514 bases of DNA from assembly GCF_003334765.1 (NCBI RefSeq), contig NZ_QOWT01000117.1; one strand, 5' to 3'. The notes below the pieces were generated by a model. The model made no database searches. It saw only the letters and a list, made by a program, of their open reading frames with translations, and had not been told where the DNA came from. Positions within the stretch are counted from its first letter, which is position 1; every line of letters begins with the position of its first letter. The position numbers were made by a program, and so were the translations under genes. The stretch is from Escherichia coli (GTDB taxonomy: Bacteria; Pseudomonadota; Gammaproteobacteria; Enterobacterales; Enterobacteriaceae). Shown piece after piece: positions 1 through 514 of the stretch.

Positions 1-233
1 ACCGTCAGAGCTAATAATTTGTCGACTGCATCGCCATCCGCAAGGTAACTGTAGAAGTGTCTTAAGAGAGTGCATTGCGTTGCCCATAACTTAAAACAGC
101 TTAGATCCTTGTTCGCCAGAAAGTTTCATCCATTTTCTTCCACCCAGGTTGCGGAAGAACCACTTTTCATCCGTCGTTGACAGATGTGAAGTATGCGGGA
201 GAAAAAGTGAATATCTAACTGTAATAACTCAGA

Positions 234-251
234 CCGGTACGAGTACTCGGG
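234..251 (+). repeat. Copy 1 of an 18-bp imperfect direct repeat, CCGGTAC-N4-ACTCGGG (ccggtacgagtactcggg)
   Basis: Matches 423-440 at 15 of 18 positions; mismatches are confined to the central 4-5 nt. Contains the 10-bp perfect palindrome cgagtactcg (240-249). Confidence 0.45.
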
Positions 252-276
252 ACGTCTACAATCATTCAGGGCAAAG

Positions 277-285
277 TGCTAAAAT
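277..285 (+). promoter_or_regulatory. Candidate extended -10 element (TGcTAAAAT) on + strand
   Basis: TG at 277-278, one base, then taaaat (280-285), which matches TATAAT at 5 of 6. The only -35-like hexamer is tctaca (255-260, 4 of 6) at a poor 19-bp spacing. If active, transcription would start near 292-294 and read into the pyrimidine-rich tract. This assumes a bacterial sigma70 context that is not established. Confidence 0.2.
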
Positions 286-291
286 TTCTCT

Positions 292-301
292 ATCCCGGGA
301 T
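292..301. other. 10-bp perfect palindrome atcccgggat (possible dimeric protein-binding site or hairpin)
   Basis: The sequence equals its own reverse complement and is centred on a CCCGGG core. A related half-site tcccgg recurs at 321-326. A single 10-bp palindrome is near chance expectation (about 0.5 per 514 bp), so confidence is low. Confidence 0.25.
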
Positions 302-392
302 GCCCCTACCAACGCAGCACTCCCGGAGATATCATTACAGCTCTGCAACTGATTTCCGCGACTGAACCGCTCAGTTCCTATCCTTCCAGTTG

Positions 393-411
393 CCCTCCTG
401 CCCCCCCTCCC
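393..411 (-). other. G-quadruplex-type motif on minus strand (gggagggggggcaggaggg), with C-rich i-motif complement on plus strand
   Basis: Plus strand 393-411 is ccctcctgccccccctccc. Its reverse complement gives four G3 tracts with loops of 1, 1 and 5 nt, matching the G3+N1-7 x4 pattern. A further C4 at 421-424 could serve as an alternative tract. The motif is seen directly; folding in vivo is not demonstrated. Confidence 0.6.
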
Positions 412-422
412 TGCTGTATACC

Positions 423-440
423 CCGGTACCACAACTCGGG
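423..440 (+). repeat. Copy 2 of an 18-bp imperfect direct repeat, CCGGTAC-N4-ACTCGGG (ccggtaccacaactcggg)
   Basis: Matches 234-251 at 15 of 18 positions, 189 bp downstream. The flanking cccg (422-425) and cggg (437-440) are self-complementary, giving a 4-bp GC stem. Confidence 0.45.
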
Positions 441-504
441 CAGCACTTTTCCCCCTCATAATCTTCGTCACACATCACACAAAACCACTTTCTCACCTTC
501 ACCG

Positions 505-510
505 TATAAT
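505..510 (+). promoter_or_regulatory. Consensus TATAAT hexamer at the right window edge, no recognisable -35
   Basis: Exact tataat at 505-510. Upstream at 17+/-1 bp is aaaacca (no TTGACA similarity), and there is no TG at -15/-14. Any transcript or gene it served would lie beyond the window. Confidence 0.15.
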
Positions 511-514
511 CCGG

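Follow-up and report, generated by a model that had tools for sequence, protein, structure and literature searches.

In this study, we found that the window, that is, the whole 514-bp stretch of Escherichia coli DNA analysed here, is almost certainly a junction inside a chromosomal genomic island of E. coli, where the 3' end of a zinc-ribbon gene, a spacer, and the end of a dead ISEc38-family insertion sequence lie side by side. Many E. coli chromosomes contain the window with 100% identity, which excludes the non-prokaryotic origin entertained in the initial annotation, and at least 80% of it occurs in one place in 2820 of 5426 complete E. coli genomes. For 185-514 taken separately the number is 2832, and roughly 12 genomes thus have 80% or more of this part but under 80% of the entire window. 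A search of the phage collection with the window gave no match. As reference we used a locus of the 100% identical genome NZ_AP021935.1 (L001), where the window coordinate equals the locus coordinate minus 6000. RefSeq (PGAP) places two minus-strand genes on this genome that touch the window, one at 1-87 and the other from 371 onward. Both are cut by the window edges, and together they make up about 45% of its length as minus-strand coding sequence (87 + 144 nt, stop included). A further 96 nt (88-183) are the end of the insertion sequence, and the untranslated centre of the window spans 88-370 (283 nt).

The gene at the right-hand edge (371-514, minus strand), supported by the PGAP CDS, Pfam, and homologs, encodes WP_001221619.1, a protein of 135 aa named 'zinc-ribbon domain-containing protein' in RefSeq (CDS at 6371-6778 of the reference locus). 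Its last 47 codons and stop codon (371-373) lie in the window, which thus contains residues 89-135, the entire zinc ribbon and the tail. In Pfam, the full-length protein matches DUF7828 at residues 4-89 (E = 7.7e-31) and Zn_ribbon_11 at residues 93-125 (window 404-502; E = 9.6e-18), and the 47 in-window residues by themselves match Zn_ribbon_11 with E = 7.7e-19. When the six-frame translation of the window was searched with the family HMM, the match fell solely in this frame. Likewise, when the window was compared by tblastx with 16 loci of other genera, similarity was confined to the minus frame from 514 to about 407, with a few matches reaching 380-389.

Four cysteine residues, C100, C103, C113, and C116, show no variation in the two alignments (8 and 12 sequences), which were made with homologs of 27-50% identity, and the invariance holds down to 27% identity. 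Y107, G109, G119, and S122 are likewise invariant in both, whereas T118 does not vary in alignment A1 and hardly varies in A2. Homologs of 133-139 aa are present in at least eight other Enterobacterales genera. On plasmids, near full-length homologs with 41-51% identity were found in Klebsiella (138 aa), Citrobacter, and Raoultella, and genomic homologs were found in Salmonella, Siccibacter, Serratia, Rosenbergiella, Hafnia, Superficieibacter, Yokenella, Tenebrionibacter, and Mixta. Intact ORFs of 134-139 aa are retained in seven of these nine genomic genera (Siccibacter, Serratia, Hafnia, Superficieibacter, Yokenella, Tenebrionibacter, and Mixta), and internal stops are present in the Salmonella and Rosenbergiella copies. 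Over residues 1-122, the ratios of synonymous to non-synonymous changes in five E. coli variants were 4:0, 8:4, 7:1, 4:1, and 2:1. As judged from these sequence comparisons, the zinc-ribbon frame is shown to be conserved and under selective constraint.

These results bear directly on the initial annotation, in which the whole 514 bp was read as an intergenic, regulatory, untranslated-RNA, or non-prokaryotic region with no credible gene on either strand. That reading correctly recognizes the two complete ORFs as weak and the central 283 nt as having no coding support, and it stands for the untranslated centre at 88-370. For the window as a whole it fails, with close to half of the length being minus-strand coding sequence. 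Two minus-strand genes cross the window edges (374-514 and 1-87); the first carries the Pfam domain described above, has homologs of conserved length in many genera, and shows a predominance of synonymous changes, the second is a transposase start running from 87 to 1, and the entire window is identical to E. coli DNA. We therefore give the gene-free reading next to no probability. A protein-level match with conserved length, which had been named as a finding that would overturn it for either ORF, was obtained for a third frame (374-514, minus strand) and for neither of the two ORFs that had been considered. The ORF track contained complete ORFs of at least 60 aa, and genes crossing the edges were therefore missed; of the real zinc-ribbon frame, only a 43-aa piece (371-502) is a listed ORF. 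The window may thus serve as a calibration case, in that a short window can seem gene-free when real genes cross its edges and the ORF track holds complete ORFs only.

The tail of the zinc-ribbon protein differs from the rest. Residues 123-135 (window 374-412) vary in sequence and in length, the last ~13 residues are unconserved, and DNA similarity to paralogous islands ends at about 394, inside the CDS. Indel alleles occur around a run of seven C at 402-408 (within 395-412), comprising +3 (in frame, 136 aa), +2 (annotated as frameshifted), and +4 alleles. A separate allele has its frameshift close to the 447-455 run (G5A4 as read on the minus strand), giving a 171-aa product (P0002) that enters the frame of the 262-471 ORF. 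Given these frameshifted alleles, part of the population may be losing the zinc-ribbon gene to decay.

Searches of NCBIfam, PHROGs, and PADLOC with both zinc-ribbon proteins gave no match, and no solved structural relatives of the zinc-ribbon protein were found by sequence. Its AlphaFold model is of low confidence (mean pLDDT 63), and Foldseek comparison of this low-confidence model with the PDB returned weak, local, and generic zinc-ribbon-like matches, all with E of at least 0.4 and none significant. In the library searched, the Pfam names Zn_ribbon_11 and DUF7828 led to no literature.

The two complete ORFs that had been singled out, one of 67 aa with a TTG start on the plus strand (149-352) and one of 69 aa with a GTG start on the minus strand (262-471), are present as described and overlap in antisense over 262-352. 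The rare-codon counts given for the plus-strand ORF (AGA twice, CGG three times, CTA twice, and ATA twice) are exact. Neither ORF is preceded by a purine-rich Shine-Dalgarno run, as is evident from the upstream sequences TCCATTTTCTTCCACCCAGG and AAAGTGGTTTTGTGTGATGT. Their dismissal as genes is upheld by further evidence. Lengths of this order are expected by chance: in 2000 shuffles with three start codons allowed, the probability of a longest ORF of at least 69 aa was 0.27, and that of two ORFs of at least 60 aa was 0.10. The plus-strand ORF starts at a TTG inside the repeat of the insertion sequence and crosses the element boundary at 183/184, and its age therefore cannot exceed that of the junction. 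A collection of ~15 billion proteins does not contain its exact sequence. Among 1.84 billion cluster representatives, it matches a single 150-aa call, made on an allele of the same locus in which a Glu codon takes the place of the in-frame stop preceding the ORF (window ~92-94). Polymorphisms within it number about five non-synonymous to three synonymous, as expected without constraint. The minus-strand ORF consists of spacer plus 371-471 of the real CDS, which it overlaps in a different frame, and it is on record solely on contigs of less than 1 kb or else as the frameshift tail of zinc-ribbon alleles, as in the 171-aa product above.

It could be argued that one of the two ORFs encodes a real small protein, since both frames are open in the five variants examined and occasional gene calls exist for them (P0001, P0003, and P0026). 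However, the plus-strand ORF is a chimera of the insertion sequence end and its flank, with its own locus as sole match and with neutral-looking substitutions, and the minus-strand calls come just from short contigs or from a frameshift tail of the real zinc-ribbon protein. Moreover, both ORFs are of chance-level length, have neither an ATG start nor a Shine-Dalgarno sequence, and have no family match in NCBIfam, PHROGs, or PADLOC. A real small protein from either ORF is thus extremely unlikely, and we conclude that neither is a gene, 149-352 being a chance ORF and 262-471 an out-of-frame overlap of the real gene with the spacer.

The C-richness of the plus strand, which the initial annotation had noted, is real (350-500, GC skew -0.42 to -0.67). 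As a sign of non-coding DNA it is misleading, since this strand-biased stretch is the complement of a real coding region rich in Gly, Glu, and Cys codons. In the same way, the Gly/Arg-richness of the minus-strand ORF product, which had been ascribed to chance on a C-rich plus strand, reflects the G-rich codons of the real zinc-ribbon frame.

At the other edge of the window (1-183) lies the end of a dead ISEc38-family element. RefSeq has an 'ISL3 family transposase' pseudogene on the minus strand at 4468-6087 of the reference locus, with its ATG at window 87-85 and 29 codons (1-87) within the window, and comparison with intact ISEc38 agrees with this assignment. The N-terminus in the window is identical to that of intact ISEc38 transposases at 28 of 29 residues. 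The translation of this copy contains two internal stops, both outside the window, and 78 of the 1620 nucleotides of the whole gene (4.8%) differ from intact ISEc38. An intact transposase copy from another E. coli locus (L008) matches DDE_Tnp_ISL3 (E = 1.2e-19) and Zn_ribbon_ISL3 (E = 1.8e-6). Between the ATG and the terminal repeat, still inside the element, is the untranslated leader of the transposase gene (88-135, minus strand), whose sequence is conserved across all ISEc38 copies from unrelated contexts; a consensus sigma-70 promoter was sought in this leader and not found.

The terminal inverted repeat itself (136-183) is about 48 bp long and imperfect, and it aligns with the opposite end of the element (from ~4418 of the reference locus), both in the dead copy and in the intact L008 copy. 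The element ends at 182/183. In independent ISEc38 copies on plasmids and chromosomes, the similarity to the window ends at 182-184 and is followed by unrelated flanks. ISEc38 copies occupy up to 13 places per genome, and 457 places on plasmids.

ISL3-family elements normally generate an 8-bp direct target-site duplication. No such duplication was found around the window copy, whose flanks in the reference locus are AGACCATA and ATGTGAAG, and none was seen in the three other ISEc38 copies inspected (L008, L010, and L011). The lack of an 8-bp duplication around the window copy implies that its arrival was not a simple insertion, or that one flank was lost later. The far flank of the element in the reference locus is a gamma-glutamyltransferase fragment. 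Together with the missing duplication, this indicates that the present arrangement probably includes a later rearrangement. Overall, the missing duplication points to such a rearrangement, or to a boundary that is off by 1-2 nt.

Two of the intact copies have features of their own. In E. coli RSHH22, an intact ISEc38 (L008, 968-2944) lies within a paralogous 'putative zinc ribbon protein' gene, which is truncated after codon 87. This gene belongs to another module of an inovirus-Gp2-family gene with zinc-ribbon genes, and ISEc38 is oriented with respect to that module as it is in the window. Such a second, independent insertion into this type of module might reflect a target preference. In the other copy (L011, ~890-970 and 2660-2684), the outer ~22 bp of the terminal repeats are swapped relative to the transposase, which would fit an inversion via recombination between the terminal repeats.

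Between the end of the insertion sequence and the stop codon of the zinc-ribbon gene lies a single-copy spacer of 187 bp (184-370), to which neither a gene nor an RNA could be assigned and which forms the 3' flank of the zinc-ribbon gene on the minus strand. The spacer is present in 2853 E. coli genomes, with a median of one copy and at most two per genome, nearly always at 95% identity or more; two records are at 80-90% identity. One carrier is E. coli ATCC 8739, in which the identity is 99.5% over the spacer and 100% over window 1-184. A paralogous copy was sought in the same 2853 genomes and none was seen. In the plasmid collection the spacer matched the same locus only, in the phage collection it matched nothing, and a 24-mer from it had no match in viral contigs. 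Against the paralogous islands and the 16 loci from other genera, neither blastn nor tblastx detected nucleotide or translated similarity to the spacer. The Rfam scan of the window at E of 1 or less gave one sub-threshold snoRNA-like match, located outside the spacer (E = 0.55; 15.4 bits against a gathering threshold of 42). The tRNA scan found none, and the promoter and terminator scan of the spacer found none either.

Most likely, the spacer is neutral filler. As an alternative, it could be a functional non-coding element, for instance a small RNA derived from the 3'-UTR, or a site that regulates the zinc-ribbon operon or the insertion sequence. This alternative can call on the high identity of a single-copy sequence kept in ~2850 genomes, and on a position directly downstream of the zinc-ribbon gene with no terminator between. 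However, the flanking dead insertion sequence is conserved to the same level, and such identity is expected from vertical inheritance within one species. The spacer also has no Rfam match, and it folds no better than shuffled sequences on either strand (z = +0.07 and +0.15). No relatives that would allow a covariation comparison were found beyond the locus. Furthermore, deletion variants retain only 29 or 56 nt of the spacer. A functional element in the spacer is, accordingly, quite improbable, and we retain neutral filler as the preferred reading.

The deletion variants differ in what the remnant abuts. In one (L002, 5001-5672), window 185-240 is joined straight to a truncated RdcB-family gene, and in the other (H160), only 185-213 is left, beside cbtA. 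We also considered the spacer as a relic of the region downstream of a paralogous gene, or of a decayed third zinc-ribbon gene; neither blastn and tblastx against the paralogous islands and the 16 loci nor the family HMM gave any sign of this. An 18-nt direct repeat (234-251 and 423-440), considered as a signal of a zinc-ribbon relic, is at chance level (P = 0.14).

The zinc-ribbon gene comes last in a module in which an inovirus-Gp2-family gene is accompanied by a tandem pair of zinc-ribbon genes, and the neighbouring Gp2-family protein matches a PHROG that is itself of unknown function. In the history that we propose, an ISEc38-family element would have been inserted, or recombined, beside the zinc-ribbon module long ago, and the junction, single-copy and carried by about half of E. 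coli genomes, would then have been inherited vertically. Because no intrinsic terminator was seen, transcription of the zinc-ribbon genes probably continues through the spacer into the dead element.

The 127-kb conjugative IncF plasmid pARG01 (NZ_CP049937.1, L031) contains the phosphotriesterase gene, the full window (99.4% identity), and the Gp2/zinc-ribbon module, which implies at least one transfer of this chromosomal segment to a plasmid; the gene table of pARG01, which is incomplete, contains neither the ggt fragment nor the transposase pseudogene. A 2.2-kb contig from a metagenome-assembled genome labelled 'Collinsella' (JAIJJM010000559.1, L015) carries the zinc-ribbon gene with 98% protein identity and matches window 458-514 at 100% DNA identity, probably because the bin is contaminated with E. 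coli. In seven loci of other Enterobacterales (L017, L018, and L020-L024), tblastx gave three tandem zinc-ribbon matches, at ~640 and 120 nt upstream of the matched gene, which suggests that several other Enterobacterales have three consecutive zinc-ribbon genes, in contrast to two in E. coli.

In summary, the parts of the window are already annotated in RefSeq; the locus is an ordinary junction of a decayed insertion sequence with an uncharacterised island gene. That the spacer is a functional RNA or regulatory element of the Gp2/zinc-ribbon module or, alternatively, that ISEc38 prefers such modules as targets, has little probability. The wider question raised by the locus is what role the widespread modules of Gp2-family and tandem zinc-ribbon genes play.

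Compared with known systems, the locus resembles the CP4-44 cryptic prophage region of E. coli K-12, since loci with the same junction are flanked by a match to K-12 yoeG on one side and by yeeR/yeeS on the other. These flanks indicate that the module sits in an island equivalent to CP4-44, although the window is absent from the K-12 region examined (2,055,000-2,085,000), a statement that applies to that region only. With ISEc38, the window shares the transposase start and the long imperfect terminal repeat, and positions 1-183 are 97-98% identical to the end of copies named 'ISL3-like element ISEc38 family transposase' in RefSeq. Unlike ISEc38, the window copy is dead, with its two stops and 4.8% divergence, has no target-site duplication, and is not mobile, occupying a single fixed site of the chromosome in about half of E. 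coli genomes. The zinc-ribbon protein, finally, matches both Zn_ribbon_11 (PF11682) and DUF7828 (PF25165) strongly and keeps the CxxC...CxxC and PWFEH motifs. As in other Gp2-family modules, its gene lies downstream of an inovirus-Gp2-family gene and forms a tandem with a second zinc-ribbon gene, an arrangement also found on Klebsiella plasmids and in other Enterobacterales. What sets the protein apart from its family is the tail after S122, which is peculiar to the window locus.
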